A stretch of 64,000 nt of DNA from assembly GCA_964403585.1 (NCBI GenBank), contig CAYOFQ010000001.1:12456-76455 (forward strand). The letters run 5' to 3'. The notes beneath the pieces were generated by a model. The model was not told the origin of the DNA. It was given only the letters and a program-made list of their open reading frames with translations, and searched no databases. Made by a program: the position numbers and the translations under genes. Shown here piece after piece: positions 17,227 through 60,046 of this stretch. The stretch comes from an uncultured Gammaproteobacteria bacterium. Lineage in GTDB: Bacteria; Patescibacteriota; Microgenomatia; JALYQM01. How positions within the stretch are numbered: position 1 is the stretch's first letter; every line of letters starts with the position of its first letter.

Positions 17227-18501
17227 ATGTCGACAATACGTAAAGTGACTTCCAACACCCTATGGCAGATAGCCGGCAAAGCAATTAATGTTATTAGCGG
17301 ACTAATTATAATTCGCTTGGTAACACAATACTTTGGCGAAGAAGGTACAGGCCTATATACGCTGGTCATTGGCTATATCGCGTTTTTCTTTATGCCTGTA
17401 GACTTCGGACTGAATGCGGTTGCAGTTAAACACCTCCTTGATGAGTCGCGCTCACCACAAAAAATATTCCGGAATTTACTTGGTCTGCGGCTAACTATTG
17501 GAACAGTCGTTACAGCAATTGCCTTACTAATATTGGTCATATTGCCCTACAATTCATTTAATAATACGGGATACTCACCTCAGGTAAAATTTGGTATTAC
17601 ACTACAGATTATAACCATTCTTGCACAGGCGATTCTCGCAACTTCCAACGCCTATTTTCAAGCTAATCACAAATACAAATACTCTTTCATCTCAAATGCA
17701 GCTGCTGCCCTGTTCAACACAATTCTGGTCGCATTCCTAATCATTTCAGGCTTCCCGCTTATATTCGCTATCGCAATCTTCAGCATCTCAGGCCTGATCG
17801 GCGCTGGAACCTCACTGTACCTCGTGAAGATAAAATTAAGGAATGTGTATCCTTTAAAAGAACCGGACTACTGGAAAGAATTATTTAGTCAAACCCTCCC
17901 GCTGACTATCTCAATTCTACTAAATCTTGTCTATTTTAGAAGCGATGCGCTAATCCAGCCTTTTTACAGGCAACTAGACGAAGTCGGACACTACAACGTA
18001 GCCTACAAAATATTCGAAGCAATGCTGGTTATTCCCAGCTACTTTGTTAACTCTCTCTACCCTGTCATGCTTGAAAAATTTAATCAGGGTGGAAATAAAT
18101 TTAAAGTGATTATACGCAAGTCTGCACTAAGTCTGGGAATGCTATCCTTATGTGCAAGCATCACCACCTACGCATTGGCACCGTACATGACGTTTCTATT
18201 ACTAAAGAGTTATGAGACTCAAACTATCCTTCTCTTAAGAATACTCTCCTCTGGTCTAATTTTCTTCTTCCTCTCCTCTATCGCAACCTGGGCCCTTATA
18301 ATAATTGGCAAACAAAAGTACCTTGCATATATATATGCCATAACCATGATTGTGAACATTTCTCTCAACCTGATTTTTATTCCACAATATGGTGCACTAG
18401 CCTCGGCGATAATTACCATCTCCACAGAGGCAATTGTCTTGATCTGCACAGCCTGGCTGCTCATGGCAAATAAAAATAATTTAACTACGGGGAAAGAATA
18501 A
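17227..18501 (+). CDS. MOP-superfamily (Wzx/MurJ-like) oligosaccharide/lipid-linked flippase
   Basis: 424 aa with about 12 predicted TM helices and a polysaccharide-biosynthesis-protein style N-terminus. The family call is from topology and general similarity only. Confidence 0.55.
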   Translation: MSTIRKVTSNTLWQIAGKAINVISGLIIIRLVTQYFGEEGTGLYTLVIGYIAFFFMPVDFGLNAVAVKHLLDESRSPQKIFRNLLGLRLTIGTVVTAIALLILVILPYNSFNNTGYSPQVKFGITLQIITILAQAILATSNAYFQANHKYKYSFISNAAAALFNTILVAFLIISGFPLIFAIAIFSISGLIGAGTSLYLVKIKLRNVYPLKEPDYWKELFSQTLPLTISILLNLVYFRSDALIQPFYRQLDEVGHYNVAYKIFEAMLVIPSYFVNSLYPVMLEKFNQGGNKFKVIIRKSALSLGMLSLCASITTYALAPYMTFLLLKSYETQTILLLRILSSGLIFFFLSSIATWALIIIGKQKYLAYIYAITMIVNISLNLIFIPQYGALASAIITISTEAIVLICTAWLLMANKNNLTTGKE

Positions 18502-28304: not shown

Positions 28305-30101
28305 TTAGTTATCTTTAGTTCCAACCATTACCACCCGTTGCCAGGCTTTATAATTACTCTTAAAAGTATCGGCAAGATGCTGTTGGCCGTCTTTCATCAC
28401 TTTTCTATTGAATACAACATTGGCACCCCATACAGCATGGTCAACCTCATTTTCCACTCCACGCTTTAATGTAGGATCATCAATTCGCAACTCAGGGGGT
28501 GGGGGAGTCTGGTTCGTTACCACCGGCTTACTTATCTCTACTGTTCTACCATCTTTAACACCGTACAAGTTAAATTCCGCCGACATAGCTTTAGTATCTA
28601 CTTTAGTCTGCAATAATAGATAATTTCCGGTATCATTCTGGAATTTAAAATCCCAGGAAGGGAAGTACACTGCCGCATCAATACCGGGAGCTGAATTCTG
28701 CTCGTAATAATAAACACGGTAAGCATGTTGATGACGCTCTTTAATCGGTAATCCGGCATTTAATACTGCTCGGAATAGTGTCGTCGAAACTTGACATAAA
28801 CCCCCACCTACGCCCGGAACAGTACGACCATTGAGAATAACAAACGCATCCTGGTATCCGGTGGATTTCTCAACTTCGCCCACAACTTTATACATTGAAA
28901 AAGTTTCGCCCGGTGCAATGAGCACCCCATTTAACTTACTGGAAGCCAGGCTTAGGTTATGAATACGTCCTGAAGGAGATCCCTTAAATCGCGAAGTACC
29001 TTGTCCCACTAACTCCTTTATTCCATAATTATTTACTGCGGCAGTAGTAATTGCCGCCTCTTTTGTTTTTACGGGAATATCTATTTCAGCTGGCTTCGTA
29101 GGGTCAAACGCCCGGACAGAAATTTCATTTGTCAATGCTTCAGTATTCAGAGCAAGTCCGGGTTGTGCCGGCTCGAATACGGTCACACGCTCGCCTTCCA
29201 GTTGAAACTTGGCTTCAATAGGTTCACGGTTCATGAGATTCGCTATCTCGGCAGTATAGGAAGCCACCTTATAATCGGTAACAACAACATCCACTCCGGT
29301 ATCCGACTTCTTCAAATCAAGCAGTGAGAACAGCTGATCTCTATTTAAATTCCAGGTGCTACCGGGCAAATAAGTAGACTTAAGTGTAAGTGGACGGGCT
29401 AATGCTACTTGAGCTTTCTGTAATGCCTGCTGACTATTCTCAATAGATATATCCGGTTTCTTATCCGCCATCGGCAGATCAAACGTTGGAGTATCTGACC
29501 GGAAGGCTAGATAGGATTCAAAGTCGCGCAAAGCCGTATCTCGATTAGCTACATACCCGATCTGAGATTGAGATAAATATACTCCTTCTTTGGTCATTCC
29601 TAATTCCGAATTCACAACCGGCTTTTCCAGCGGACGTATTGCATCAGCTAATCTCGAGTCAAAAGTAATTTTATCGTACGCATAAATAGGGGAGAGATTA
29701 ACACCTCCTCGCAATGCCCGTCCGGCATTTCTGAATCTATTATTTAAATCTCCGGAATGACCGATACTGAAAGCAGCATCGGCCGTTTTCTCAATATCAT
29801 AACTGGTATAATAACCAACCTTGCCAAGAGATATCTGAGGTGCACCATTCGAAGGGGTAAACTGTACTGTATGCGCTTCACGGTTTTGAAATTCCTTCCG
29901 GAGTAAAGCTATAGACTCGTCCCGGGATTTTCCGGACAAATCTACTGAACCGATATGTACACCCGGAAGCACTCGATTAGAATAAAAAAGAATCGGGAGT
30001 CCAAGAGCCAAAATAGGCAGACCAATAAAAAAACTGATCAATACAATGACCTGCCATTTCGGCATTTTTTGAAAAAATTTAAAAAAAGATTTCTTTTTCA
30101 T
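28305..30101 (-). CDS. VanW-family protein (N-terminal TM anchor, YoaR-like)
   Basis: GETFSMYKVVG...GY.DAFVILNG...GVGGGLCQVSTTLFRAVLNAGLPIKERHQHAYRVYYY...GIDAAVYFPSWDFKFQNDT is the conserved VanW core. Confidence 0.8.
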   Translation of the reverse strand: MKKKSFFKFFQKMPKWQVIVLISFFIGLPILALGLPILFYSNRVLPGVHIGSVDLSGKSRDESIALLRKEFQNREAHTVQFTPSNGAPQISLGKVGYYTSYDIEKTADAAFSIGHSGDLNNRFRNAGRALRGGVNLSPIYAYDKITFDSRLADAIRPLEKPVVNSELGMTKEGVYLSQSQIGYVANRDTALRDFESYLAFRSDTPTFDLPMADKKPDISIENSQQALQKAQVALARPLTLKSTYLPGSTWNLNRDQLFSLLDLKKSDTGVDVVVTDYKVASYTAEIANLMNREPIEAKFQLEGERVTVFEPAQPGLALNTEALTNEISVRAFDPTKPAEIDIPVKTKEAAITTAAVNNYGIKELVGQGTSRFKGSPSGRIHNLSLASSKLNGVLIAPGETFSMYKVVGEVEKSTGYQDAFVILNGRTVPGVGGGLCQVSTTLFRAVLNAGLPIKERHQHAYRVYYYEQNSAPGIDAAVYFPSWDFKFQNDTGNYLLLQTKVDTKAMSAEFNLYGVKDGRTVEISKPVVTNQTPPPPELRIDDPTLKRGVENEVDHAVWGANVVFNRKVMKDGQQHLADTFKSNYKAWQRVVMVGTKDN

Positions 30102-35416: not shown

Positions 35417-36352
35417 TTACAAACCCTGCACCACACCGCGTGGGTTAAACGGCACATCATTTCGGTGGATTTCGAAGTGCAGGTGAGGACCTGACGAATG
35501 ACCGGTGGTTCCGACTAATCCCAATACAGTACCGGTACCAACCTGCTGGCCGGTAGAAACATTTATTTTACTCATGTGAGCATAAAGCGTCTGAACCCCA
35601 TTGGCGTGCTGTACATAAACTACATTTCCGTAACCCCACAAACTCCAACCGGCTGAAGTAACATAACCGTCAGCTACCGGATAAATCGGCGTACCTGAAT
35701 CGACGACCAGGTCCATACCGGGATGCCCCGCGCGGAAGTACGTCGAGATCTGTTTTAACGGTACTTTCAATGGGTTAAGATATACACCGTTAGAGGAAAC
35801 TGCCGGGGGAATAAAGTTCTCCGGGAGTTTTTGCGCAACACCGACCTTAGATAAATCCTGAGCCGCAACATATTTCTTTACCACAGGAGCCGGAGTAGGG
35901 GTAGGAGCTAACTCGGTAACGATCGGCATCATAGCCGCGCGAACTTCTGCCGACGCGGTAGCTGTAGCCGAAGGGCTTGCCTGAATTTCAACTACTGCTT
36001 CTTCGGCAAAGGCAATACCTTGCTGGTTGATTACTACATAATATTGACCATCAAACTGACGTAACATTGGCTGGTATAAGAAGAAGAGTACTGCTATTCC
36101 GGCAATCGAACCGCCGAAGAACATATGCAGATTCGAGTTAGTGATAATTAAACGACCGAGACGTGAGAACCAGTTAGTTCCAAAACGGGGATTCCACAAT
36201 CGCTGGACAAATCCAATAGACAGGAAAGATACCCTAATCTTCTTTAGAACGTAATTGAGTGCAAATACGATCAAAGAAAGAGGGAACGTTAAGATATAAA
36301 ACACACTCTTAACGATCGAATATAACTCCAAAAACAATTTCAACAGTACCAT
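35417..36352 (-). CDS. M23-family (LytM-like) metallo-endopeptidase with N-terminal TM anchor
   Basis: HPGMDL...D.G...YP.ADG.V and GTTGHSSGPHLHFEIH are the M23 HxxxD and HxH motifs. Confidence 0.8.
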   Translation of the reverse strand: MVLLKLFLELYSIVKSVFYILTFPLSLIVFALNYVLKKIRVSFLSIGFVQRLWNPRFGTNWFSRLGRLIITNSNLHMFFGGSIAGIAVLFFLYQPMLRQFDGQYYVVINQQGIAFAEEAVVEIQASPSATATASAEVRAAMMPIVTELAPTPTPAPVVKKYVAAQDLSKVGVAQKLPENFIPPAVSSNGVYLNPLKVPLKQISTYFRAGHPGMDLVVDSGTPIYPVADGYVTSAGWSLWGYGNVVYVQHANGVQTLYAHMSKINVSTGQQVGTGTVLGLVGTTGHSSGPHLHFEIHRNDVPFNPRGVVQGL

Positions 36353-36792: not shown

Positions 36793-38403
36793 ATGAGGAA
36801 AAAAATACTTACCTTAAGTATAATTACAAGCATTATAATGCTACCGGTCATAATGCTCTACACCCAAACCCAAGCTGCCAACCCCAATGAAATTCTCCAA
36901 ACCAGCTGGAATAACTACAAAAACGCTATGATTGACCCTGACGGCGCCGTCAGACGACGTGATCAGGGGAATGACGTGGTATCCGAAGGCATTGCCTACA
37001 CTATGTTACGGGCCGTCTGGATCAACGACCAGGAAACCTTTGATAAAGTCTATGGTTTCGCTGAGAAAAAAATGTCGCGTCTCAATAACAGCAGCCTGGG
37101 AGATAATCTTTTGGCCTGGCTGTATCAGGGTAATAACGTAACCGACTGGGGAGCCGCTTCAGATGCCGACGAAGACTATGCCTTGGCGCTGGCTTTTGCT
37201 GAAAAGAAGTGGGGAAAGCCAAAATCAGGCAATCTTCCGGATTATCGGGAGAAATCGATCGCCGTCCAAAAGGACATCTTACGCCTCGAAACAGGCTGGG
37301 CAGGAGATAAAGTCTATCTGCAGCCGGGCACCTGGTATGCCTTTAAAGCACCAATTCCGGTTAACCCTTCATATTTAGCACCTGGACACTATAAAATTTT
37401 CAACCAGATGTCACCGGACCCGCGCTGGGAAAAACTTATTGAATCATCCTATGATATCCTCTGGAAGTCCTCAGGATCAATTGATGGTCAGATAGGGATT
37501 GGGTTACCCGCCGATTGGGTCAATGTTCAGGCGAATGGTAGCATCACTAAGGCTCCTAATTTGGGCATCGACTACAAGTACGACGCTATTCGAACCAGCA
37601 TGCGCGTAGCAATGGACTACGCCTGGTTTAACGATATGCGGGCCAAAAACTATCTAACTTTGTCCGGCGCTCGCAATTTCTTATTAAATACAATCAATAA
37701 CAAAGGCAAAATCGGTACCGAATACCAGCACGACGGAACACCAATTGGTGGCGAATATACCAACGCTGCTTCCTATGGAACTAATATCGGCTGGTTCATG
37801 CCGGAAAACTCAGACAAAGTCCAGCAGTTCTTAGGAATAATGCAGGACGAGTACCATAAAAACGGCAATAAATTTATGGCCGGTACCAATTATTATATGG
37901 AAAATCTTGCCTGGATGGGCTACGCTTTGGGAACCGGAAATATGCCCAATATCTACGGCGGCCAAACCAACGCTGGTGGCAATCCAACTATCATGGCAGC
38001 TATCGCCACACCCGAGAGAAACACCCCTAACCCGACAATTGTCGCAACCGTTACCCCCTCAGTTACACCGTCACCGTCTGTCCAACCGACAGCTACACCG
38101 GGCTCACAGCAACCAAGCACCGGGCAATGGCTGCAAATCTCTAATCCCAATGACAATCAGAATCTTAACGGCAAATTTACCATGAAGATTAAGAATAACT
38201 TACCAAACAATCAGGGTACCTGGTGGTCGGTAGATAGCGGAGGATGGGTTGGTATGCAAAACGTCGGCAATAATGAATGGGCCGGCGAAATAGATATTTC
38301 CGGATGGAATTGGAAGTCGGACCAAAACTACACCTTACACGGCTGGACCAAAGATCAGAACGGCAATCAGATCCATACGCAGGTAAATATACACAAACAA
38401 TAG
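36793..38403 (+). CDS. Secreted glycoside hydrolase family 8 enzyme with Pro/Thr linker and C-terminal ~110-aa domain (possible carbohydrate-binding module)
   Basis: ASDADEDYALALAFAEKKWGK fits the GH8 signature (A-[ST]-D-[AG]-D-x2-[IM]-A-x-[SA]-[LIVM]-x-A-x3-[FW]) with one conservative deviation. Signal peptide, a PT-rich linker TPNPTIVATVTPSVTPSPSVQPTATP, then a Trp/Asn-rich terminal domain. Confidence 0.7.
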   Translation: MRKKILTLSIITSIIMLPVIMLYTQTQAANPNEILQTSWNNYKNAMIDPDGAVRRRDQGNDVVSEGIAYTMLRAVWINDQETFDKVYGFAEKKMSRLNNSSLGDNLLAWLYQGNNVTDWGAASDADEDYALALAFAEKKWGKPKSGNLPDYREKSIAVQKDILRLETGWAGDKVYLQPGTWYAFKAPIPVNPSYLAPGHYKIFNQMSPDPRWEKLIESSYDILWKSSGSIDGQIGIGLPADWVNVQANGSITKAPNLGIDYKYDAIRTSMRVAMDYAWFNDMRAKNYLTLSGARNFLLNTINNKGKIGTEYQHDGTPIGGEYTNAASYGTNIGWFMPENSDKVQQFLGIMQDEYHKNGNKFMAGTNYYMENLAWMGYALGTGNMPNIYGGQTNAGGNPTIMAAIATPERNTPNPTIVATVTPSVTPSPSVQPTATPGSQQPSTGQWLQISNPNDNQNLNGKFTMKIKNNLPNNQGTWWSVDSGGWVGMQNVGNNEWAGEIDISGWNWKSDQNYTLHGWTKDQNGNQIHTQVNIHKQ

Positions 38404-38452
38404 TCTCGGGAAAAACAATGAGGAAGACAGGTGCTAAAACCACCTGTCTTTT

Positions 38453-39976
38453 TTATTTAACATCATATCGCAAGATATACGACCGCATCTCCAGACCGGG
38501 GGAAAAACGTTGAGTGGTATAAATCTCATAGTGCTCGTCCATATACTTGCGAATCTTACTCTCATAACCCTGATCATACGAAAGCACGACAAACACCCGC
38601 ATATACTGCTTTTTATATTCTTCTATCTGTTTTGCCAGGGCCTCATCCGAATAGGGAGGAATAGCCCCGCCTTTTTCATCATAACGGTTCCAATAGGGAA
38701 TAGTGTCAATTCGTGCCTGACCATTATATCCGTATTCAATCGGATATATTGTGAATGGAGCCGATACCGCAATAATATCCTTGGCGGTAGTATGTTGGCT
38801 AAGGTAGGCATCTACGCCGGCATAATCTTCCTTAACCGGAGTCGCAGCAGAAATATTCTGGTACCCTGAAAGGCCCAAGAGAATCAGCATAAAGCCGGTA
38901 ACTAAATATGTTGCAATACGTTTGGAGTATGAAAGCATCGACCACGACAAAATAAAGAACAGGGAAGGAGTAACGAGAATCAAATAGCGGGACAAAAATA
39001 TCGGCCGAATAAACGACACAAAGAACACTAAAATAATCGGCAGTACGGTGACAAATCCGAAATAGGCGATTCCTACCACCGGCAATCGTTTCCGTTTGGT
39101 AAAAAGCATAAACAGCATAATTAAAGATAACGGCCATAACGCGATAATAAAAGCCTGTACTGCCTGAGTCTGGAAACCGAACAGAAATTGTACAATTATC
39201 TGGAAAATATTAAAGCTGGTTGGTCGTGGAATAAGCGGCGAGGCATTACTTGCCGTACCGAGACTATAAACATAGGTAATCCAGGGCGTAAGGAATAAAA
39301 AGGATTCCAAAGCCAGGCCTAACCATTTCAGTGGAAATCCAATATACTTTCGCACCAGCTGCCAGAACGAAACCTCGCCAAATGCCGGGTCACGATATAC
39401 AGCAGATAACATACGGCCAAGTATAAACACACCTTGTGTAATTAATAAGAACAGGAAAAAATAGTGAGTATAAAGACCTAAAATAGCACTAACTAGATAG
39501 CCGAATTTTGAGGTCTTGCCTTCACTGCGAACCAGACGCAAAAAGTATAAATGATTCAAGCTGGTAACAAGCGTAAACAGAGTATACATGCGGGCTTCAT
39601 TGCTATACCACATCACAAACGGCGATAACGTAAACAGCGCCACAGTAAGATACGCTACACGCTTTGAACTCGACTCCCGGGCAAAGCGATACAATACCGG
39701 TAACGTAAGAATAAAAAACAGAAACGACAACGCCCGCACAACCATAATGTCGGTACCGAATAACTGCATCCAGAAATGAAGCAGAAGCGCATACAACGGA
39801 ACGTGCACATCCTGAGCAATATAACTCAGTAATGCCGGAATAGATTTCGTCGAGGCCCAGATCGACTGCGATTCATCCAACCGGATCGACTGCGAATAAA
39901 GAGTAATCAACGAAAGCGTGCACGCTGCGAGTATTAAAACCACAAAGCTGATATCTAATAATTTCTCTCTCTTCAT
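38453..39976 (-). CDS. Polytopic membrane glycosyltransferase of the GT39/GT83 (PMT/ArnT-like, GT-C fold) type
   Basis: 507 aa with more than 10 TM helices and DE-containing first loop (LDESQSIWAS) typical of GT-C enzymes. The family assignment is from topology only. Confidence 0.5.
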   Translation of the reverse strand: MKREKLLDISFVVLILAACTLSLITLYSQSIRLDESQSIWASTKSIPALLSYIAQDVHVPLYALLLHFWMQLFGTDIMVVRALSFLFFILTLPVLYRFARESSSKRVAYLTVALFTLSPFVMWYSNEARMYTLFTLVTSLNHLYFLRLVRSEGKTSKFGYLVSAILGLYTHYFFLFLLITQGVFILGRMLSAVYRDPAFGEVSFWQLVRKYIGFPLKWLGLALESFLFLTPWITYVYSLGTASNASPLIPRPTSFNIFQIIVQFLFGFQTQAVQAFIIALWPLSLIMLFMLFTKRKRLPVVGIAYFGFVTVLPIILVFFVSFIRPIFLSRYLILVTPSLFFILSWSMLSYSKRIATYLVTGFMLILLGLSGYQNISAATPVKEDYAGVDAYLSQHTTAKDIIAVSAPFTIYPIEYGYNGQARIDTIPYWNRYDEKGGAIPPYSDEALAKQIEEYKKQYMRVFVVLSYDQGYESKIRKYMDEHYEIYTTQRFSPGLEMRSYILRYDVK

Positions 39977-39977
39977 A

Positions 39978-41543
39978 CTATTTCTCCGAAGCTGCTAACT
40001 CAGATTTTCCGTATCCAAAACTAAATAAACGGGCGAACAGACCTTTCCAGTCATATGCTGCCTGAATAAAGGGAATAAACATAATTACGTTAAATAAGCC
40101 CCACGTAATGTTGGTTATCACCGACGGAGTAAGCCCTTCCCGGCGGATACCAATTACTGCACAGGCGACAATGATAACTACATACATTAGGTGCGGATAA
40201 GCGAGGAATAAAAAGTTACCTTCCTGAGCTTGTTTTGGCGTAACGGCAAATCCCATCTTCTGTTTTAACAATATGGATTTGATTGCCTGCAATTGTAAAG
40301 GCCAGGAAGACATTGAGAATGACAGTCCACGGAATGTTACAGAATTACCTGAGGCAATGTACAACGTATAAAGGTTCAGGAACATAAAAGGCAGGAAGAA
40401 GAATGCAAAGGAAGTGGTAGTCCCTTCCACCGGCTGGATACCGGTAGCCAGAGAAATTATCGGGATCAGTGCATCCACCACAATAATAACACCGTTAAAG
40501 TAATACAGCGCCGAGGAAAGGTACTGCATCTTCTGGCCCCAGGACATATTTTTCTTGAAGAGCGGATTGAATCCGAAGAGAACCTCTAAGGAACCACGAG
40601 CCCAGCGAAGTTGCTGCTTACAGTAGGAAAGCAAGTCTTCAGGCGCGAAACCCTCAGCCAGGACTTCCGGTACATAGTAGGATTTCCATCCGTTCTGGTG
40701 AATAAAGAACGATGTTAAGAAATCTTCGGCAATATTGTCTTCACACATACCACCAACTTGTTCCAGGGCAGTTCTCCGGATCGCCACATTAGTGCCACAG
40801 ATAAATGCTGCATTACTTTTTTCTTTACCGGCCATAATTGGACCGAAGAATAATTCCTGTTGTTCCCATGCTCCACCGGCAACCTGATTCACATCATGAT
40901 TGAGGTAATACTGGGGTGTCTGTACAAATCCCACCTGCTTGTCTTTGAAATACGGTACAACTTTTTGCAAAAAGTCTTCGTGTGGAGCCATATCCGCATC
41001 GAATATAACGATAATGGAGCCCTGAGTCTGTTTAAGTGTGTTATTAATATTTCCGGCTTTCGCCCCACCTGGAGTTTTACGGGTGATACAAAAGACACCA
41101 ATCTCTTCAGCCATCCGCTCGTATTCCTGCCAGTTTGGTTTCTTGGCAACATAACCGTCATTAAGGATATAGACTTTATGATTTGAATACTTCATCCGCT
41201 TTGCAGCCAATGCCGTACTACGGACAATCTCTACCGGTTCACCGGCACAGGGGATATAGATATCTACAGAAGGTTGTCTACCCCGTAATGCAAACTCACG
41301 GGCTGCTTGCTCTCTCTGCTGGCCGGTAAGCGTATATTTAGAATCAGCTGGCCAAACAGTGAACCAGAAGCAAAATGCCATTATGATGTGATAAACCTCA
41401 CCGATTACCAGCAACCAGTAGAAAACCGGATGTCCCACATGACTTAAGTCCATCCACCACGAAAAATAAATAATCGCCATAACTACATTGAAGATAATTA
41501 ACGTTCTATTTACTCTTCCGGTTGGTATTCGTGCTTTGTTCAT
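39978..41543 (-). CDS. Processive family-2 beta-glycosyltransferase (cellulose-synthase/BcsA-like catalytic subunit, no PilZ domain)
   Basis: Conserved D,D,D residues, FICGTNVAIRRTAL (matching FFCGS..RR.AL), TEDFLTSFFIHQNGWKS (TED motif) and QQLRWARG (QxxRW) are all present and in the correct order. Flanking TM helices. Confidence 0.8.
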   Translation of the reverse strand: MNKARIPTGRVNRTLIIFNVVMAIIYFSWWMDLSHVGHPVFYWLLVIGEVYHIIMAFCFWFTVWPADSKYTLTGQQREQAAREFALRGRQPSVDIYIPCAGEPVEIVRSTALAAKRMKYSNHKVYILNDGYVAKKPNWQEYERMAEEIGVFCITRKTPGGAKAGNINNTLKQTQGSIIVIFDADMAPHEDFLQKVVPYFKDKQVGFVQTPQYYLNHDVNQVAGGAWEQQELFFGPIMAGKEKSNAAFICGTNVAIRRTALEQVGGMCEDNIAEDFLTSFFIHQNGWKSYYVPEVLAEGFAPEDLLSYCKQQLRWARGSLEVLFGFNPLFKKNMSWGQKMQYLSSALYYFNGVIIVVDALIPIISLATGIQPVEGTTTSFAFFFLPFMFLNLYTLYIASGNSVTFRGLSFSMSSWPLQLQAIKSILLKQKMGFAVTPKQAQEGNFLFLAYPHLMYVVIIVACAVIGIRREGLTPSVITNITWGLFNVIMFIPFIQAAYDWKGLFARLFSFGYGKSELAASEK

Positions 41544-41557
41544 ACATTAGTCCTTTC

Positions 41558-42733
41558 TTAGTACGCCACCAATCGCTCATTGTATAAAGCTGCACCAAAC
41601 CACAGCCAGTTTTGCTCGTAGTAGGGTAGGGTGTCTTTAAATTGTGTTTTGTCGGTAGAATAAAGATCTAAAATCTTCTCCTGGTAAACCTTATCGGCAG
41701 ATTGTGGATCAATGATCTTAAAATAACCAATTGCTGTGGCATACATAGTCGGATTCTCATAATCTTCCAGAACCGTGCCGTCGTGGGAATAAGAACTGGC
41801 AAGTTTATATCCGGACTTCTTATACAGTTGGGAAAATATTTGTAGCGAAGACAAATACTCATAAGCGCGCGCATCACGGTTCCACTGGTAATCTAAAGCA
41901 ATTCTCCAAGGGATACGCATTGCATCATACGAGTAATTTGTTTTAAGGTTTGGTAGCGGAGCAGCTTTAAGCGCGCCGTTTGATTTTTCGATTGCTACCC
42001 AGTCCGGGGGAAGTCCGATACTCTTTGCCGTATCAAGTGGTTGCTTGGAGCTTTCATTAAGTAATTCATAAGCCGGACCGATTAAACTGTTCCAGTCATG
42101 CTCCGTATCTACTGTCGCGAAAATTCTCCAGGCATACGGTGCAAAGTACGAAGGATTAACCACAACCGATTCTGAAGACTGAGCCCAGTTCCCGGCAGTA
42201 AGATATCGTTTATTCTGCACAACAGCAGTTTCTTTCTCCCACATGGCACCGAGAATCTGTTTTGCTTGAGCAAGATATTCTTCATTACTCCAGCGTCGTC
42301 CGGCGAGTATCAACGCCAAGGCGATATCCGAATCTGCATCACTTGCTGAATTTATGCCGCCATCCGGTAAGAAACCGTATTTGTTCTCACCTAACTTACC
42401 CCACTTCCATCCGAACAGCCAATCGTCCTTATGCTGCATGTTATTTTTAGTGAACACCCATACTTTATCGAAAGTAGCACGGTCATCACTCCACACCGCG
42501 CGGAGTAATGCATAACTTTGGCCTTCTGATGTAGTAATGTTATCCTGGGTATCATCGAGAATACGGCCATCTTCGGATAAGAAATTTACTTTGTATTTTT
42601 CCCAGGAAGACTGGAGCAACGTGTATGGGGAAAATGTCCGTGTGTAGGCACTATATCGGCTGTTTGAGTAGAGCACAAAACCAATAACTCCAATACCAAG
42701 CAATAATAGTAGTAAGCCAATATATTTTTTCAT
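41558..42733 (-). CDS. Secreted glycoside hydrolase family 8 endoglucanase (BcsZ-like)
   Basis: ASDADSDIALALILAGRRW is an exact-class match to the GH8 signature. N-terminal signal/TM. Immediately upstream of, and 14 nt from, the BcsA-like gene. Confidence 0.8.
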   Translation of the reverse strand: MKKYIGLLLLLLGIGVIGFVLYSNSRYSAYTRTFSPYTLLQSSWEKYKVNFLSEDGRILDDTQDNITTSEGQSYALLRAVWSDDRATFDKVWVFTKNNMQHKDDWLFGWKWGKLGENKYGFLPDGGINSASDADSDIALALILAGRRWSNEEYLAQAKQILGAMWEKETAVVQNKRYLTAGNWAQSSESVVVNPSYFAPYAWRIFATVDTEHDWNSLIGPAYELLNESSKQPLDTAKSIGLPPDWVAIEKSNGALKAAPLPNLKTNYSYDAMRIPWRIALDYQWNRDARAYEYLSSLQIFSQLYKKSGYKLASSYSHDGTVLEDYENPTMYATAIGYFKIIDPQSADKVYQEKILDLYSTDKTQFKDTLPYYEQNWLWFGAALYNERLVAY

Positions 42734-42736
42734 AAG

Positions 42737-43432
42737 CTAAAATAATTCGGTAATAAGTTGGGATGCGCCGCGAATACGTGTAGAAACGTTCTGTAATGGT
42801 CTAGGATACATCATAAGTAATCCAATTATAGAAAACGTAAAACCTGAACTTAGAAGAATTTTAGTACTCGACTGAGATAAGCCATGCGGATGGTAATAAT
42901 CACGGTCCTTATCCTGAACCAGGAACGAAAGTGGCGAGTCGAGAAGTGTGTTGTATGCATTATCTCCAATATCCTGGATGATTGGCTTGGATTTTTTAGT
43001 TTCAGTATTTAAGATTCTTTCAATCGTGACCTTCGGTGAAGCCGTGGGAGTGGGCGACGGACTCGTAGAAGGACTCACCGAAGGAGCTGGTGTCGAAGTC
43101 GCGGGAGTAACACCGCCTACCTGAGGAGCAGAACTTGGCGTTGCTGATGCCACAGGACTGGCTACTACCGAAGCCGACGGTGCAACGGTACCAGCCGGAG
43201 TCACACTTGGAATAGGTGAGGGGCTTGTAACAGGAGTAACTGTTGGTTGAACGGAAGGCGCGGCACTTGCAGTCGGTGCGACGGTAGGTGCTGGTGAAGC
43301 AGTTGGCTCAACAGTCGCTACTGGCGTCGGGCTTCCCGGCAATTGAACAGTTATATCCACTGCATAAGATCGAGTGCTTGAAACACCGAAGAGAACAACC
43401 AGAATTGGAACGAAGAGTACTTTCTTTACCAT
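42737..43432 (-). CDS. Secreted Pro/Thr/Ser/Ala/Val-rich low-complexity protein with C-terminal hydrophobic segment
   Basis: Signal peptide, about 140 aa of (P/T/S/A/V) repeats, then a globular tail with TM-like FTFSIIGLLMMY. Confidence 0.5.
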   Translation of the reverse strand: MVKKVLFVPILVVLFGVSSTRSYAVDITVQLPGSPTPVATVEPTASPAPTVAPTASAAPSVQPTVTPVTSPSPIPSVTPAGTVAPSASVVASPVASATPSSAPQVGGVTPATSTPAPSVSPSTSPSPTPTASPKVTIERILNTETKKSKPIIQDIGDNAYNTLLDSPLSFLVQDKDRDYYHPHGLSQSSTKILLSSGFTFSIIGLLMMYPRPLQNVSTRIRGASQLITELF

Positions 43433-43653
43433 ACAAAATATCCGTGTAAATAACCTTCATATTATATTCCGAATAACACTATAAGTCAACCTATAGTATA
43501 TTGTAGTGTATATTTCATGCTATCTATGAGAATAGAATTAATTATACTATAAAATAAATTGATAGTCCAGCTATAATATTTAGGATAGAAATAATCTCCT
43601 TGCTACATATAGAAGTTAAGTGATGAAAGGAGAAAAGATGCGGACAATAACTT

Positions 43654-44874
43654 TTATGGATACCAATCCTTGATTCGTGTTCTGAGAATATCTTCGGTCA
43701 TTGGGTAGGGGGCAATTCCTAAACTCTGGAAACCAACATTCAGCAACTCCGCAGCGGCCATGTCCCGCTTTAATATACCTTCTGCACCGAGAACGACTGC
43801 CACAACTTGCTTACCGTTCCGTGTTGCCGAAGCCACCGTAGTATGCCCGGCATCACCGGTATTACCAATTTTTACACCATTAGCACCGGGATACGTATTT
43901 ATAAGCATATTCCAGTTCGGTAAGCGAATCGCCTGGTGGCGGGTATTTGCAGCAAGGTACCCGTCTTTGCGTGCGACGATACCTGCAAGTTCCGGATAAT
44001 GGGTCATAGCGTAGTGCGCAATAACCGCCAGATCTTCACAATTAGAATAGTGCTCCGGTCCATCATAACCTTGCGGATTCTGAAAATGTGTATTCTTCAG
44101 ACCCAGGAACTTTGCCTTCTCATTCATTGCCGCGACAAATAAATCGGTATTACCACCGTATTTTTTACCAATCTCTTCGGCGAGAACCGCCATTGCATCA
44201 TTTCCGGATGTTAATAACCCGCCTTGTATGAGTTCACGGGTGGTGAGTATATCTCCGGCTCGTACACCAATTACTGTTGGTTCAACCTGAGTAGCCGGCG
44301 TCTCCACAGTAAACTCCTCATCCAGACTAGCCAGGTCCATTGCAACCATCGACGTCATGATTTTAGTAGTCGAAGCGATCGGCATCCGCTGGGAAGCATT
44401 CTGTGCATAGTAAACTTCTCCTGTTTCAAAATTGATCGATAAAGCCGCTTTGGTAGTTAGGGCATCTTTCAACAAACCGGGTCCGCCACCAACGGCTTGC
44501 TGAGGACGCGTCTCTGAAACTTTCCAGGGGTCCGGTGAAGTTTTTAAGAACGGAATGACTTGACTAAGCAGGCGCTGAGAAGGGGAAACGGTGGCGGCTA
44601 TTGCTTGCGCCGAGTCGGTCGAAGTGCTCTCACTAATCGAGGCGTTGAGAAGCTCAGGTTGACGGAGTGTCGAAAGACCGACACCAACTCCAAGTGCAAT
44701 CACACCGAAGCCAAAAATATAGGATGAAAATAATGAGCGTTTAGGTTTTTGAATGTATTCTGCGCGTGTAATTTTGGGGGGACGATAAGAATAATATGTC
44801 CGCATCAGATAGCTCCTTGCATGAAATGTACAAAAACTATAACAACGTATGCTATAGTAATCAATTTCAAACAA
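43654..44874 (-). CDS. dacA: D-alanyl-D-alanine carboxypeptidase (peptidase S11, PBP5/6-like)
   Basis: IASTTKIMT (SxxK), LLTSGNDAM (SxN) and KTG-like VKIGNTGDAG. The start is probably the internal Met (MRTYYS, ~44805) rather than the extended track start. Confidence 0.75.
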   Translation of the reverse strand: MFEIDYYSIRCYSFCTFHARSYLMRTYYSYRPPKITRAEYIQKPKRSLFSSYIFGFGVIALGVGVGLSTLRQPELLNASISESTSTDSAQAIAATVSPSQRLLSQVIPFLKTSPDPWKVSETRPQQAVGGGPGLLKDALTTKAALSINFETGEVYYAQNASQRMPIASTTKIMTSMVAMDLASLDEEFTVETPATQVEPTVIGVRAGDILTTRELIQGGLLTSGNDAMAVLAEEIGKKYGGNTDLFVAAMNEKAKFLGLKNTHFQNPQGYDGPEHYSNCEDLAVIAHYAMTHYPELAGIVARKDGYLAANTRHQAIRLPNWNMLINTYPGANGVKIGNTGDAGHTTVASATRNGKQVVAVVLGAEGILKRDMAAAELLNVGFQSLGIAPYPMTEDILRTRIKDWYP

Positions 44875-46679: not shown

Positions 46680-47156
46680 ATGATCGCGGCATTGTTGGGC
46701 ACACTTTCCGTTGCCCGAAAAATAAATCCGGATCTGCCGCTTAAAGTACTTTCAGTTGTCTCGGGTTCCATGGAGCCTGCCATCCCGGTCGGAAGCGGAG
46801 TAGTGGTACTTTCTCAACCGTCATACTTCGACAATGACATCATTACGTTTAAATTCTCTGGTAATTTAGTAACACATCGAATAATTTTCGCCGGAAATTA
46901 TTTTTTAACGAAAGGGGATGCCAATCGATCTATCGATCCTGAGACAGTCGAGAAAGAGCAAATAGTCGGCAAGGTAATTCTACACATTCCGTATCTGGGG
47001 TATTTACAGGAGTCGACTAAGCATTTATCCGGCCTGGTTCTATTTATCATTATTCCATCATGCCTGATCATCATTCACGAAATAATTATTAGTATCAAGC
47101 TAATTAAAAGTTATCGGTTCCGTTTCCTGTCTCGCCGCAACTCCCGAAGTTCCTGA
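46680..47156 (+). CDS. sipW: Type I signal peptidase, archaeal/eukaryal-type (S26B; SipW-like)
   Basis: VVSGSMEP (Ser box), GDIITFK, LVTHRII (His box) and LTKGDANRSIDP (box D). Confidence 0.8.
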   Translation: MIAALLGTLSVARKINPDLPLKVLSVVSGSMEPAIPVGSGVVVLSQPSYFDNDIITFKFSGNLVTHRIIFAGNYFLTKGDANRSIDPETVEKEQIVGKVILHIPYLGYLQESTKHLSGLVLFIIIPSCLIIIHEIIISIKLIKSYRFRFLSRRNSRSS

Positions 47157-49390
47157 TCCATATCCCGCTGCATTTCCGCCAAGCGCTGACTAAGATCATT
47201 GGTCTGATTTATCGGTACGAAAGAGGGAGTCGCGAAAGGACGATTAGTCGAGTCACCGGCAACATTCGGCTGAAGTACACTTGGATCAGTCAGACCCATT
47301 CCTGCCTGTAAGTCCTGAACCTGCTTTCGTACCGAATTACAATTGGATTCGACACTTCCGGCGATATAAACTTCTCGCGCCGAATTAAATTCATAAAAAA
47401 GTTTTTCTTGACCATTATCATTAACCCGTTTCTCCACCAGGGAACACATTTCTCCCTCGATCACTCCTGGTGGACGGGCAAATTGCTCAAAGCCCGTATC
47501 TTTAAGAGTTCCTTCCATAATATCTTTCCAGATCGGAGCCGCTCCTAAAGAGCCCGCAACACTATCCATCTCCGTGTTGTCGTTATTCCCAACCCACACC
47601 CCAACCACCAGCGACGGAGTATACCCAATCGTCCAGGCGTCCCTGTATTCATCGGTAGTACCTGTTTTGACAGCAGCCGGTCTGCCGCTCGGCAACTTTA
47701 GTGAAGTCGATCCAAACACCTCTTGTCGTGCCGTATTATCCGACAAAATATTAGTTGTAATATAAACGGCTCCTTCATTTGCTACACGCTGTGGTTCATG
47801 TTCATGTATATATATCGTTTGCCCGTATTTATCGACAATTTTTTCAATGGCATATGCCTGGTTATAAATTCCGGTGTTGGCCAACGTCGCATATCCTGTG
47901 GTCATCTCCAGTGGTGTAACTTCACCACCACCAAGTACCAGACTTAATCCGTAATTCGACGGTTCACCTAAACTTTTTACACCCAGTGATTTAGCGTAAT
48001 TAAGTCCGTCTTCAACTCCAACCATCTTCATCGTTTGCACAGCCGGCAAGTTTAGAGAATTTGCTAACGCTCGCCGCGTCGTAACTTTTCCGCGGAACTT
48101 TCCGTCATAATTCTTCGGCTTATAATTACCACCAAAGTCAGTCGGGGTATCATCCAGTTGCGTTGCTGCAGTAATAAGTTTCCGTTCGATAGCTCGTGTA
48201 TAAATATAAGGCTTAAAAGAGGAACCCGGCTGTTGATTGGATAACGTAATATTCACCTTCCCATCGATAGCGTCATTATCCCAATCCGCCGAACCGACCA
48301 TTGCCATGATTGCACCGTTCTTTGGATTAAGCACCACAGCTGCACCATTGGTGACTTTATTTTTAGCTAAATTACGCACCTGTTTTGTCACTTCTTCTTG
48401 AGATAAATCCTGCACCCGCGAATCAAGAGTAGTAAACACACGGTAACCGAAACGCTCCAGAGAGTCTTCACCAAATTGATTAAGTATTCGTTGACGGATA
48501 TATAAAGAGAAGTGGGGATATTTACCTTGAACTATTTTTCGTTCTACGAAAGTTAATTTTTCTTTTGTTGCTTCTTCCATGTCCGTAGCAGTAATAAATT
48601 TCTCATCATGCATTCGTTGAAGAACAAATAATTGGCGCTTAATCGCCAGATCGGTATTGGTAGAGAGAGTGGAGGGAGCATTAGGTAAAGCTGCTAAAAA
48701 CGCTGCTTGAGCCAGAGATACTTTTTCAATCGGCACACCAAAGTACGCAAGCGATGCCTCACCAATCCCATACGCACCTCGACCATAATAGCTTGAGTTA
48801 AGGTACATCTCCAAAACCTGGTCCTTGCTATACCGTTTATCAACACCTACTGCTAACACCAGCTCCTTCAACTTTCGTGTATATGATTTTGAACGGTCAT
48901 CAAGCAGAGCATTTTTTACCAACTGTTGCGTAATGGTTGAACCTCCATAGGCGTAGGCATTACTCTTCTGGAAATTCAGCGCAATCGAGCGGAATATACC
49001 GCCCCACGAAAAACCCTGGTGATCATAAAACTGGGCGTCTTCAACAGCCAGTGTGGCGTATTTCGCTACCCGCGGCACTGCGGTAATGGAGACATTCCCG
49101 ACCTCATGCGCGCCATCACTCTCGTAAATAATCTGGTTATTTTTATCGTAAATTATTAATCCCCGGAAATGGCGATTCAGAAGGCGATCCTTAGAAACCA
49201 GATCTTCTGCGTAAACTACATATGTTTGGAAGGCAAAAAGTAAACCGAAGGCCAGGAAAATAAGGCCAAAAAAGAAAAAGAGTGCAATATACACGCCACG
49301 CCGGCGCTTACTTTCAATTCGCTCCAGTAAGGTTACCGGTTCTTTATGAATGTGCAAAAAAGGAAAGCGGCGCGACACATGAATTTGCAT
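47111..49390 (-). CDS. Bifunctional class A penicillin-binding protein (GT51 transglycosylase + transpeptidase)
   Basis: EDAQFYDHQGFSWGG and RGAYG-like (GT51 motifs), SNQQPGSSFKP (SxxK), SLN, KTGTTDEY (KTG), with an N-terminal TM anchor. The 3' end overlaps sipW convergently by 46 nt. Confidence 0.85.
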   Translation of the reverse strand: MQIHVSRRFPFLHIHKEPVTLLERIESKRRRGVYIALFFFFGLIFLAFGLLFAFQTYVVYAEDLVSKDRLLNRHFRGLIIYDKNNQIIYESDGAHEVGNVSITAVPRVAKYATLAVEDAQFYDHQGFSWGGIFRSIALNFQKSNAYAYGGSTITQQLVKNALLDDRSKSYTRKLKELVLAVGVDKRYSKDQVLEMYLNSSYYGRGAYGIGEASLAYFGVPIEKVSLAQAAFLAALPNAPSTLSTNTDLAIKRQLFVLQRMHDEKFITATDMEEATKEKLTFVERKIVQGKYPHFSLYIRQRILNQFGEDSLERFGYRVFTTLDSRVQDLSQEEVTKQVRNLAKNKVTNGAAVVLNPKNGAIMAMVGSADWDNDAIDGKVNITLSNQQPGSSFKPYIYTRAIERKLITAATQLDDTPTDFGGNYKPKNYDGKFRGKVTTRRALANSLNLPAVQTMKMVGVEDGLNYAKSLGVKSLGEPSNYGLSLVLGGGEVTPLEMTTGYATLANTGIYNQAYAIEKIVDKYGQTIYIHEHEPQRVANEGAVYITTNILSDNTARQEVFGSTSLKLPSGRPAAVKTGTTDEYRDAWTIGYTPSLVVGVWVGNNDNTEMDSVAGSLGAAPIWKDIMEGTLKDTGFEQFARPPGVIEGEMCSLVEKRVNDNGQEKLFYEFNSAREVYIAGSVESNCNSVRKQVQDLQAGMGLTDPSVLQPNVAGDSTNRPFATPSFVPINQTNDLSQRLAEMQRDMDQELRELRRDRKRNR

Positions 49391-56257: not shown

Positions 56258-56330
56258 GGGCCGCTAGCTCATTTGGTAGAGCGCCTCGTTTGCACCGAGG
56301 AGGTGAGGAGTTCGAGCCTCCTGCGGTCCA
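56258..56330 (+). tRNA. tRNA-Ala (TGC)
   Basis: Acceptor GGGCCGC/GCGGTCC with a G3:U70 pair (the alanine identity element), D arm GCTC..GAGC, anticodon stem CCTCG/CGAGG, loop TTTGCAC, T arm AGGAG-TTCGAGC-CTCCT. Confidence 0.85.
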
Positions 56331-56664
56331 CACACCAGTAAGATGTCTTTATGATGGTGTCAGTGAGTATTTCGGTACTCGCCGCCATCATAAAGCTATC
56401 TTAAATTGACGACCATAGCCTTAACAGGGAGTCAAGCAGATAATAGCTTGCCACTGGTTACGAGCCAGTATTAGTACCTTAACAAGTGAATAGTGAAATA
56501 TATCTCAATTTAAATCTAACAAGGTTTTTTTGAGTGTAATTCCGCATCTGATTTTGTCGCAAGACAAAATCACTCAGACACGTAAGTGTCTGAGTACAAT
56601 GATCAATTTAATATTGATCACCTTTGAAGATAAAAAAATATAAAATGTAAATGTTAAAAACTAC

Positions 56665-59590
<2,926 letters not shown>

Positions 59591-59925
59591 ATTGCGAACG
59601 CATACCTATGTGCGGAGCAATTTACCCTGAGCTATAAGCGAAGGGTTAGCATTTACATTAATAGGACAAATCGGAATTACAAAATTGACTTTCAGGAGTC
59701 CGGAATCGGGAGAAACGAACATCCCGCAAGGGAAAATTCCATGGATCTTCCGGTTCCATACTTCTGTCTGCGTTCACTATTCACTTTTTAAGGTACTAAT
59801 AAGCCGAAAGCGAAGACACTTTGTCGAGCCTTAGGTCCTGAGCTATAAGCGAAGGAAAACATTAACATTAAAATCTCGAATGAGTAATCGAAAAATAGGG
59901 TAGGAAGTTCATACTTTATTTCTCG

Positions 59926-60026
59926 GTTATTCGAGCGACATGGTACCACCTCTTCCCATCCCGAACAGAGAAGTGAAACGTGTTAGCGGTGACGATACTG
60001 GGGTCGCAAGGCCCGGGGAAAATAAC
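59926..60026 (+). rRNA. rrf: 5S ribosomal RNA
   Basis: CCACCTCTTCCCATCCCGAACAGAGAAGTGAAACGTGTTAGCGGTGACGATACTGGGG is 5S loop B/C/helix IV-like. The ends are approximate. Confidence 0.75.
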
Positions 60027-60046
60027 TCATAGCCGGGATTAACATC

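Follow-up and report, generated by a model that had tools for sequence, protein, structure and literature searches.

We report that a minus-strand operon in a 64,000-nucleotide stretch of contig CAYOFQ010000001.1 (the window, by which we mean the whole stretch of DNA that was analysed) encodes a BcsA-type GT2 polysaccharide synthase together with a glycoside hydrolase of family GH8, a GT-C type membrane glycosyltransferase and a small proline/threonine-rich (PT-rich) anchored protein. The GH8, GT2 and GT-C genes belong to a cassette that recurs across Patescibacteria and is virtually certain to be real, and the GT-C is an obligatory partner of the synthase, sometimes fused to it, and not an incidental neighbour. 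We give an even chance to the view that the cassette is a synthase-dependent machine for β-glucan biosynthesis and export, the chain of which is decorated by the GT-C outside the membrane. All five open reading frames (ORFs) of the locus lie exactly where a previous examination of the letters alone (the sequence-only reading) had placed them, and the four with an assigned family pass the threshold of that family; hidden Markov model (HMM) E-values across the locus range from 1e-9 to 1e-83, which excludes chance for every match. The ORFs are as follows.

43432..42737, minus strand: PT-rich ORF, 231 aa, no Pfam family
42733..41558, minus strand: small (operon) GH8, 391 aa, PF01270 E=2e-54
41543..39978, minus strand: GT2, 521 aa, five GT2/Cellulose_synt Pfam families
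39976..38453, minus strand: GT-C, 507 aa, PMT_2 38.2 bits against a cutoff of 26.1
36793..38403, plus strand: large GH8, 536 aa, PF01270 E=1e-39

The operon runs from 43489 to 38424 in the order PT-rich ORF, small GH8, GT2 and GT-C, with intergenic gaps of 3, 14 and 1 nt. The PT-rich ORF had been thought to follow the operon and is actually its first gene, and the large GH8, described as divergent, is actually convergent with the operon, tail to tail, the stop codons being 49 bp apart.

A scan across GTDB, with one genome for each species, yielded at least 591 confirmed matches, and the best 80 loci were examined. GH8, GT2 and GT-C were all present in 74 of these, the remaining 6 being cut by contig ends. 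The three genes were co-directional in all 67 scorable loci (59 in the order GH8-GT2-GT-C and 8 in the order GH8-GT-C-GT2), with median gaps within the cassette of 1 and -4 nt. Carriers span Microgenomates, Paceibacteria/Parcubacteria, Saccharibacteria, WWE3, Gracilibacteria, Dojka- and Doudnabacteria, as well as the cultured Actinobacteria Klenkia soli DSM 45843 (L051), Klenkia sesuvii (L056) and Quadrisphaera sp. INWT6 (L038); a further such locus is L046. These four loci show ∼47% identity and have GtrA-like and GtrB-like genes upstream of GH8-GT2-GT-C. Because the actinobacterial cassettes nest among those of Patescibacteria in a rough neighbour-joining tree, in which this was seen for Klenkia, horizontal transfer between the two groups appears likely. 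The sequence-only reading had described a 'minimal' bcsA-bcsZ core; the conserved unit is instead a distinct four-part system, with the GT-C as partner and the PT-rich ORF recurrent, and not a reduced bcs operon. In the searchable literature (subscription-only papers being outside its scope) we found no description of the cassette, in the candidate phyla radiation (CPR) or elsewhere, and none of any BcsA-like synthase that has a GT-C as its partner.

Glycoside hydrolases of CPR bacteria are commonly interpreted as carbon-degradation genes, and secreted GH5, GH6 and GH8 enzymes with binding-type modules do resemble classic cellulases. On this basis the locus could be a catabolic cluster for environmental cellulose, with the GT2 and GT-C as unrelated neighbours. 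However, the GH8 and synthase genes are coupled across phyla, lying ∼1 nt apart in 74 of the 80 loci, the operon GH8 is tethered to the membrane, and the operon holds neither a sugar transporter nor a downstream catabolic gene; we therefore rejected this explanation, which we consider scarcely credible.

A physical link between the synthase and the GT-C comes from natural fusions. A profile search of 1.84 billion representative proteins returned 1,530 relatives at E≤1e-30, and among them are three divergent proteins of ∼1000 aa in which the GT-C is restricted to the C-terminal half.

L082 6001-8988: P0253, HEY0908469.1, Paceibacterota, on 4 independent contigs
L084 6001-9018: P0272
L085 6001-8988: P0283

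The N-terminal halves are GT2 domains with 47% identity to the window GT2 over residues 10-500, and the motifs are intact in the GT2 and GT-C halves of all three fusions, which are annotated in the public record just as 'glycosyltransferase'. The topology is consistent with fusion: six transmembrane (TM) helices put the C terminus of the GT2 in the cytoplasm, where TM1 of the GT-C begins. The predicted structure of a fusion (pLDDT 89, pTM 0.83) suggests that the two halves adopt a defined mutual arrangement. Apparent overlaps of GT2 and GT-C ORFs in high-GC actinobacterial loci were discarded as long spurious ORFs and do not represent fusions.

We turn to the GT2 itself, which by hydropathy has 2+4 TM helices, compared with 4+4 in BcsA, and carries the following motifs.

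41154-41165, minus strand: NDG
41049-41060, minus strand: KAGN
40992-41000, minus strand: DAD
40911-40922, minus strand: QTPQ
40764-40805, minus strand: FICGTN..RRTAL
40722-40730, minus strand: AED
40593-40616, minus strand: QQLRWARG
40233-40250, minus strand: gating loop FAVTPK

The strings ASDADSDIALAL, FICGTNVAIRRTAL, QQLRWARG, DAD and NDG were verified in the window sequence. The motif set listed by the sequence-only reading thus stands with respect to FICGTN..RRTAL, DAD, NDG and QQLRWARG, and its 'TED', the acid/base motif, reads AED (aa 272-274). In 78 orthologs, D129, K162-A-G-N, D182-x-D184, Q208-T-P-Q, C249-G-T-N, E273-D274 and Q310-Q-x-R-W314 are conserved at ≥95%, as are the FxVTxK gating loop residues F432, T435 and K437, which count as invariant. 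Against NCBIfam TIGR03030 (CelA) the GT2 scores 279 bits over model positions 59-564 of 714, and its next-best NCBIfam matches, PgaC and NodC, score far lower. The GT2 family profile matches E. coli BcsA over residues 201-702 (E=3e-78) and Rhodobacter sphaeroides BcsA over residues 62-581 (E=3e-72), and this alignment covers the TM helices and channel that follow the GT domain and ends before PilZ. Consistent with this, a structure search with the GT2 portion of one of the natural fusions, as modelled, gave BcsA (4p00) as its best match (E=4e-24, root-mean-square deviation 4.0 Å, 544 columns, 25% identity), with plant CesA, CslF6 and hyaluronan synthases ranking below it.

Pairs of a GT2 and a GT-C in which the former merely makes the lipid-linked donor of the latter are the norm (Ppm1/Pmt, ArnC/ArnT, GtrB/GtrC), and the GT2 also matches the Pfam family Glyco_transf_21, so that a non-processive, DPM/DPG-like lipid or polyprenyl-phosphate glycosyltransferase feeding the GT-C had to be considered. 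This possibility was ruled out, and we hold it to be very improbable, because the alignment to BcsA is full-length and includes the channel helices, QxxRW and the gating loop, and because the structural match is to BcsA; moreover, a separate, genuine small GT2 of the GtrB/ArnC type lies at 33 of the cassettes. As the sequence-only reading had proposed, the GT2 is very probably a processive synthase of the BcsA type. It had also been said to have no PilZ domain, and this is borne out: the alignment to CelA stops at the model position given above, the protein ends ∼25 aa past its last TM helix, and there is no RxxxR motif. The associated claim that the system is free of cyclic di-GMP (c-di-GMP) control holds in the sense that PilZ is absent, and in that sense only; without PilZ, the GT2 is predicted not to be gated by c-di-GMP in the manner of BcsA.

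The operon GH8 has the following features.

aa 5-23, minus-strand ORF: N-terminal membrane anchor
42518-42532, minus strand: catalytic E70 in TSEGQ
42290-42346, minus strand: signature ASDADSDIALALILAGRRW
41915-41929, minus strand: D270 in YDAMR

Both GH8s of the locus pass the PF01270 threshold, as had been expected of them (185 bits for the small and 137 bits for the large enzyme, cutoff 24), and retain the catalytic residues; in the family of the small GH8, all 70 sequences have E70 and D132, and 66 of the 70 have D270. The nearest solved structures of the operon GH8 are of the BcsZ/CMCax type, although chitosanases, xylanases and lichenases are also among the structural database matches of GH8. 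The large GH8, a paralog of the operon GH8 with 35% identity, has the catalytic motifs and the Pro/Thr linker and Trp-rich terminal domain that the sequence-only reading had noted.

36979-36993, plus strand: catalytic motif VSEGI
37156-37212, plus strand: catalytic motif ASDADEDY..
37579-37593, plus strand: catalytic motif YDAIR
37981-38121, plus strand: PT-rich linker
38122-38400, plus strand: Trp-rich Ig-like module (aa 444-536)

In the public gene call the large GH8 begins at M21 (516 aa; 36853 instead of 36793), and because this removes an evident signal peptide, MRKKILTLSIITSIIMLPVIMLYTQTQA followed by ANP, we regard the ORF of 536 aa as the likelier product. The Trp-rich module is ∼90 aa long, with a consensus of about WWPT..QPFKA..Y.M.WQVDGG..M..PHKEA.VD.S.W.W..G.Y, and we found it in 29 cassette-side proteins from 25 sources, in one or two copies and at either end (for example L019:11137-12699 and L049:10923-12713). 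It is joined to catalytic domains of GH6 (23 loci), GH113 (6), GH5 (L011, L019) or GH8, and every hydrolase that bears it has a PT linker; no GH6 gene turned up in the window with tblastn and jackhmmer. Pfam gave PKD/Ig-like matches to the module, all sub-threshold, and a homolog search with 94 aa of it returned three short fragments and nothing more. The CBM-like character that the sequence-only reading ascribed to this tail is putative. The large GH8 thus occupies a conserved 'accessory glycanase' slot. To our knowledge, β-1,4-glucanase is the sole known activity of GH6 (CAZy). Because different β-1,4-glycanase folds have repeatedly been recruited with one and the same module, the product of the cassette would be β-1,4-linked, and we regard a β-1,4-glucan backbone as probable.

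The GT-C call of the sequence-only reading agrees both with the PMT_2 score and with the modelled structure, which is a GT-C fold (pLDDT 87, pTM 0.85). The fold neighbours are ArnT, STT3/PglB, ALG9/12 and Pmt4, with TM-scores of ∼0.5, and Pmt1-2 was also matched; a search of solved structures by sequence found no relative of the GT-C, and fold comparison alone was informative. The protein has the following landmarks.

1 nt past the GT2 stop, minus strand: start codon
39866-39880, minus strand: L-D-E-x-Q after TM1, invariant
39584-39598, minus strand: EARMY
38981-38992, minus strand: SRYL
aa ∼376-507, minus-strand ORF: C-terminal extracytoplasmic α/β domain with invariant aromatic residues

Its orthologs score 280-640 bits against the window protein and are therefore a specific family and not generic PMT_2 neighbours. 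Across 66 of them L33-D34-E35-x-Q37 directly behind TM1 is invariant, as are E127, R129 and Y131, H171, R330-Y331 and the aromatic residues of the C-terminal domain; in all, D34-E35 and ∼40 other residues do not vary. To judge from this conservation, the invariant set is the signature of an active GT-C and not of a degenerate scaffold, and we think it likely that the GT-C works as an enzyme and is functionally coupled to the synthase.

The donor of the GT-C is presumed to be a polyprenyl-phosphate-linked sugar. Three-component systems of GtrA, a GT-A and a GT-C glycosylate wall polymers extracytoplasmically (PMC8035078; PMC13390465). In keeping with such a scheme, a small GtrB-like GT2, the best matches of which are ArnC (7e-24) and then PgfS, AglJ, a Dol-P-hexose transferase and PpgS, flanks the cassette in 33 of the 80 loci, and 23 loci have a neighbouring gene of the GtrA family, frequently joined to the GtrB-like one as a GtrB::GtrA fusion. 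At the locus of the P0253 fusion the order is GtrB-like, GH8, GT2::GT-C, CTP-transferase-like and GtrA.

The fourth component is the PT-rich protein.

aa 1-24, minus-strand ORF: signal peptide
43028-43342, minus strand: P/S/T/A/V-rich disordered stretch (aa ∼31-135, ∼110 aa)
42803..42901, minus strand: juxtamembrane motif DYYHP-HGLSQ and C-terminal TM helix (aa 178-210)

It had been taken for a secreted protein. The signal peptide and the P/T-rich region were indeed found, but at its C terminus the protein has one TM helix followed by a basic tail and is thus membrane-anchored rather than freely secreted. About half of the related loci have an ORF of this architecture tightly coupled to GH8 on its upstream side, the common juxtamembrane pattern being an aromatic-Tyr pair, four residues, [LIF]-[SNP] and a TM helix with a central Gly. 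An HMM of the juxtamembrane region, built without the window ORF and its closest relative, ranked the PT-rich ORF first of the 167 window ORFs (E=4.5e-7; runner-up 0.014) and, across 2,464 locus ORFs, separated cassette-adjacent matches (≤4e-4) cleanly from noise (≥0.19). The PT-rich ORF is thus a genuine fourth component that recurs with the cassette. Its topology, with a signal peptide, an outside portion and a C-terminal anchor, is that of BcsB, the TM anchor of which is the part that BcsA needs (PMC11022532, citing Omadjela 2013), and by this analogy the protein could be a 'mini-BcsB', a hypothesis we put forward as such.

Compared with the bcs operon, the cassette offers a BcsA-like GT2, with D, DxD, (T/A)ED, QxxRW, the FxVTxK loop and a channel TM bundle, and a BcsZ-like GH8 in the same operon. 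In contrast to Bcs, it lacks PilZ, BcsB and BcsC, its synthase has six instead of eight TM helices, an obligatory GT-C and a small C-anchored protein are present instead, and the host is a Patescibacterium, presumably with a single membrane. The absence of bcsB and bcsC at the locus, which the sequence-only reading had pointed out, was confirmed, because no ORF of the operon or its flanks has a Pfam or NCBIfam match to either, and neither is among the recurrent neighbour families of the 80 loci; that of BcsC is expected of a cell that lacks an outer membrane. A GlxA radical copper oxidase is likewise missing from the operon, its flanks and the recurrent neighbour families. By its family assignments, the cassette thus falls outside the BcsA and BcsZ equivalogs, PilZ, BcsB/BcsC and GlxA, yet resembles the synthase-dependent systems of the Bcs and CslA kind.

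Every characterised bacterial cellulose synthase requires a non-homologous membrane partner encoded adjacently, namely BcsB, CcsB or GlxA (PMC11022532). The Streptomyces CslA-GlxA-CslZ(-LpmP) system resembles the cassette in having a synthase without BcsB, a non-homologous membrane partner directly downstream, a glucanase alongside, which parallels the GH6 of many cassette relatives, and a monoderm envelope (PMC11022532, PMC9040799). It differs in that its partner is a radical copper oxidase and not a GT-C, c-di-GMP stimulates CslA, which retains part of a PilZ domain, and no counterpart of its lytic polysaccharide monooxygenase was seen here. In E. coli, BcsG, a modifying enzyme with a lipid donor, docks on BcsA (PMC8892547; PDB 9fmz). 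BcsG, like the GT-C as we picture it, is a polytopic enzyme with an extracytoplasmic catalytic site that modifies the nascent chain from a lipid-borne donor on the synthase; however, it is a phosphoethanolamine transferase of the alkaline-phosphatase fold using phosphatidylethanolamine, whereas the GT-C, with its presumed polyprenyl-phosphate sugar donor, would add a sugar. By analogy, these two, CslA-GlxA-CslZ for the obligatory non-homologous partner and BcsA-BcsG for the lipid-donor modifier on the synthase, appear closest in logic to the cassette. The clostridial CcsA-CcsB-CcsZ operon is a Gram-positive-type cellulose synthase operon with a 'cellulase' of GH5, a family also found beside some cassettes, but Ccs has a functional homolog of BcsB and acetyltransferases and no GT-C (PMC11022532, PMC8892547). 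Lastly, GtrA/GtrB/GtrC, CsbB/GtcA/YfhO and GacI-L likewise have a polyprenyl-phosphate-sugar synthase, a flippase and a GT-C encoded together, as in many cassette relatives (PMC5836110, PMC8035078, PMC11127046). The known acceptors of these three-component systems are polymers that are built on undecaprenyl diphosphate or lipid-anchored (O-antigen, lipoteichoic acid, wall teichoic acid, rhamnan) or proteins, and in the searchable literature we found no description of a three-component GT-C coupled or fused to a BcsA-type polymerase.

This comparison also raises the question of whether the GT-C is mainly a structural partner in the role of BcsB, CcsB or GlxA, which steadies the channel or guides the chain while its transferase activity is secondary or lost. 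The adjacent membrane partner of all characterised systems and the dependence of CslA activity on GlxA (PMC11022532) favour such a role, as do the strict adjacency, translational coupling and occasional fusion of the two proteins, the invariant aromatic residues of the C-terminal domain, and the fact that the GT2 appears to have no counterpart of the first ∼60 residues of BcsA, i.e. its first two TM helices. Nevertheless, no variation across phyla is seen in the D-E motif or at other positions typical of a GT-C active site, indicating that catalysis has been retained, and GtrB-like and GtrA-like donor genes recur beside the cassette. We consider a mainly structural GT-C quite unlikely; a structural contribution as such is compatible with a GT-C that decorates the glucan.

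According to the decorated-glucan model, the GT2 would polymerise a nucleotide-sugar, most likely UDP-glucose, into a β-1,4 chain, with its own six-helix channel as the exit. The GT-C, whose translation is coupled to that of the synthase in the window and which forms one polypeptide with it in some relatives, would sit beside it. At the outer face of the membrane it would take a sugar from a polyprenyl-phosphate donor and attach it to the chain as this emerges, so that the glucan becomes decorated or branched; in many relatives the donor would be made and flipped by the products of GtrB-like and GtrA-like genes nearby. The membrane-tethered GH8 would trim or release chains as BcsZ does, the small protein with its signal peptide and C-terminal anchor could be a structural accessory that stabilises the complex, possibly as the counterpart of the essential TM anchor of BcsB, and the convergent secreted GH8, with its Trp-rich targeting module, may remodel the polymer in the wall. 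For the step on which the decoration depends, namely that the glucan is the acceptor of the GT-C, we see close to an even chance.

Several observations weigh against this model. The GT2 remains under the cellulose-synthase equivalog cutoffs (279 against 699 for TIGR03030 and 194 against 992 for NF008558), the GH8s remain under that of BcsZ (NF008305; 155 and 90 bits against 299), and linkage and sugar identity are read solely from the associated hydrolases. A GH113 gene, of a mannanase family, and a GDP-mannose-pyrophosphorylase-like gene lie beside some cassettes. Neither a GtrB-like nor a GtrA-like gene was found in the 64-kb window by tblastn and jackhmmer, and a GtrB-like gene lies near only one locus of the Microgenomates clade (L003-L021); the donor pathway of this genome is therefore hypothetical. 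The PT/ST-rich regions of neighbouring proteins keep protein O-glycosylation a live role for the GT-C, and the pTM of the modelled fusion is only an indirect pointer to an interface between GT2 and GT-C.

The first of these points bear on the backbone, which could instead be another β-linked polymer, such as a (gluco)mannan, a mixed-linkage or curdlan-type glucan or a chitosan-like chain. The sub-cutoff score of the GT2 and its 25% identity to BcsA leave room for this, and so do the chitosanases, xylanases and lichenases of the GH8 family and the plant CesA-like enzymes that produce glucomannan and mixed-linkage glucans (PMC11022532). GH113 is encoded beside the P0272 fusion (L084 9022-10911) and at six further loci (e.g. 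L048:2205-4076 and L071:7607-9532), accompanied by nucleotidyltransferases that include a GMPPB-like one, which hints at mannose in the polymer of some lineages. On the other hand, the operon GH8 is closest to endoglucanases of the BcsZ/CMCax type, GH6 is the commonest accessory enzyme (23 loci), the PgaC and NodC scores are far under that of CelA, and the window holds two GH8s and no GH113. We therefore regard a different backbone as somewhat unlikely.

The PT-rich regions bear on the GT-C, which could be a protein O-glycosyltransferase that acts on P/S/T-rich regions, those of the small anchored protein and of the GH5, GH6, GH8 and GH113 linkers, and shields them from proteolysis, the glucan being undecorated. 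Such glycosylation of PT-rich regions has precedent (PMC11092751). It would fit the PMT_2 assignment, the fold matches to Pmt4 and Pmt1-2 and the match of the GtrB-like neighbour to PgfS, and P/S/T-rich stretches are frequent in the cassette neighbours: the richest 60-aa segment of the PT-rich ORF is 63% P/S/T, many upstream ORFs of relatives are similarly rich, and PT linkers are common to all module-bearing hydrolases. However, the GT-C is in every cassette and the P/S/T-rich partners are not (the upstream ORFs of L007, L008 and L012 have ≤28% P/S/T), the P0283 fusion has no adjoining hydrolase, the core GH8 is without a PT region, and it is hard to see why a general protein O-glycosyltransferase would be fused to a polysaccharide synthase. 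Overall, we judge this alternative unlikely.

If the decorated-glucan model is correct, the GT-C would join BcsB, CcsB and GlxA as a fourth kind of partner of a bacterial cellulose-type synthase and would be the first GT-C coupled or fused to a synthase-dependent polymerase, uniting two paradigms of glycan assembly that have been treated separately. The cassette is kept across most Patescibacteria lineages despite tiny genomes with few biosynthetic pathways, which suggests that the polymer matters for the envelope or for attachment to the host, and many CPR glycoside hydrolases that metagenomic surveys score as carbon-degradation potential may be biosynthetic or remodelling enzymes. In its widest form the proposal, which we offer tentatively as possible, is that of an unrecognised class of glycan machine in Patescibacteria and a few Actinobacteria, in which a GT-C is an integral subunit, or at times a fused domain, of a PilZ-less cellulose synthase and glycosylates the chain at the channel exit. 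A branched, hemicellulose-like β-glucan would then be a major envelope polymer of these ultra-small, host-attached cells, and the GH5, GH6, GH8 and GH113 'cellulases' of CPR bacteria that bear the Trp-rich module would be dedicated remodelling enzymes. The cultured carriers Klenkia soli DSM 45843, Klenkia sesuvii and Quadrisphaera sp. are usable experimental hosts.

With respect to transcription, two signals frame the operon.

43461..43489, minus strand: promoter-like site TTGACT-17-TATAAT (11/12), ∼30 nt upstream of the PT-rich ORF, consensus match only
38424..38450, minus strand: hairpin with a 10-bp stem, filling the 49-bp space that separates the convergent stop codons

Promoter-like sites are no more numerous in the region than expected from shuffled sequence. 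The hairpin is probably a bidirectional terminator.

The nearest homologs of the window proteins are from metagenome-assembled genomes of Patescibacteria/CPR, whose source names include Levy-, Davies- and Blackburnbacteria, and the window GT2 falls in a Microgenomates-like clade in a rough tree. The 64-kb window also holds dnaA, dnaN, rnpA, yidC, groES/EL and 23S-5S rRNA. Envelope genes crowd the surroundings of the cassette (28305-49390).

28305-30101: VanW/PG_binding gene
35417-36352: M23 peptidase
43654-44874: S11 DD-carboxypeptidase
47111-49390: class A penicillin-binding protein

The M23 and S11 flanks are kept only in the closest relative, L002.

Further features of the window were noted in passing. 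At 56258-60038 on the plus strand lie tRNA-Ala(TGC), 23S and 5S rRNA; because no 16S gene is found immediately upstream, the 16S rRNA gene is probably unlinked to 23S-5S. A giant ORF of 2880 aa at 1902-10544 (plus strand) has seven TM-like segments at aa ∼2030-2250. On the minus strand at 1726-1796 there is a match to the AdoCbl-II (cobalamin) riboswitch that narrowly exceeds the gathering score (41.4 against 36.5 bits), and the minus-strand ORF downstream of it (1046-1471) is non-coding in appearance. A Wzx-like Polysacc_synt gene (17227-18501) precedes the gene for a 953-aa protein (18986-21847, plus strand), which has a NAD-dependent sugar epimerase/dehydratase domain at its N terminus (aa 16-311), a single TM segment at aa ∼403 and an extracytoplasmic region of ∼530 aa without a Pfam match. 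Finally, the plus-strand segment 45946-47156 encodes a camelysin/TasA-like secreted protein (weak PF12389 match, N-terminal signal of the 'AYFTS' type), followed by a SipW-like S24/S26 signal peptidase.

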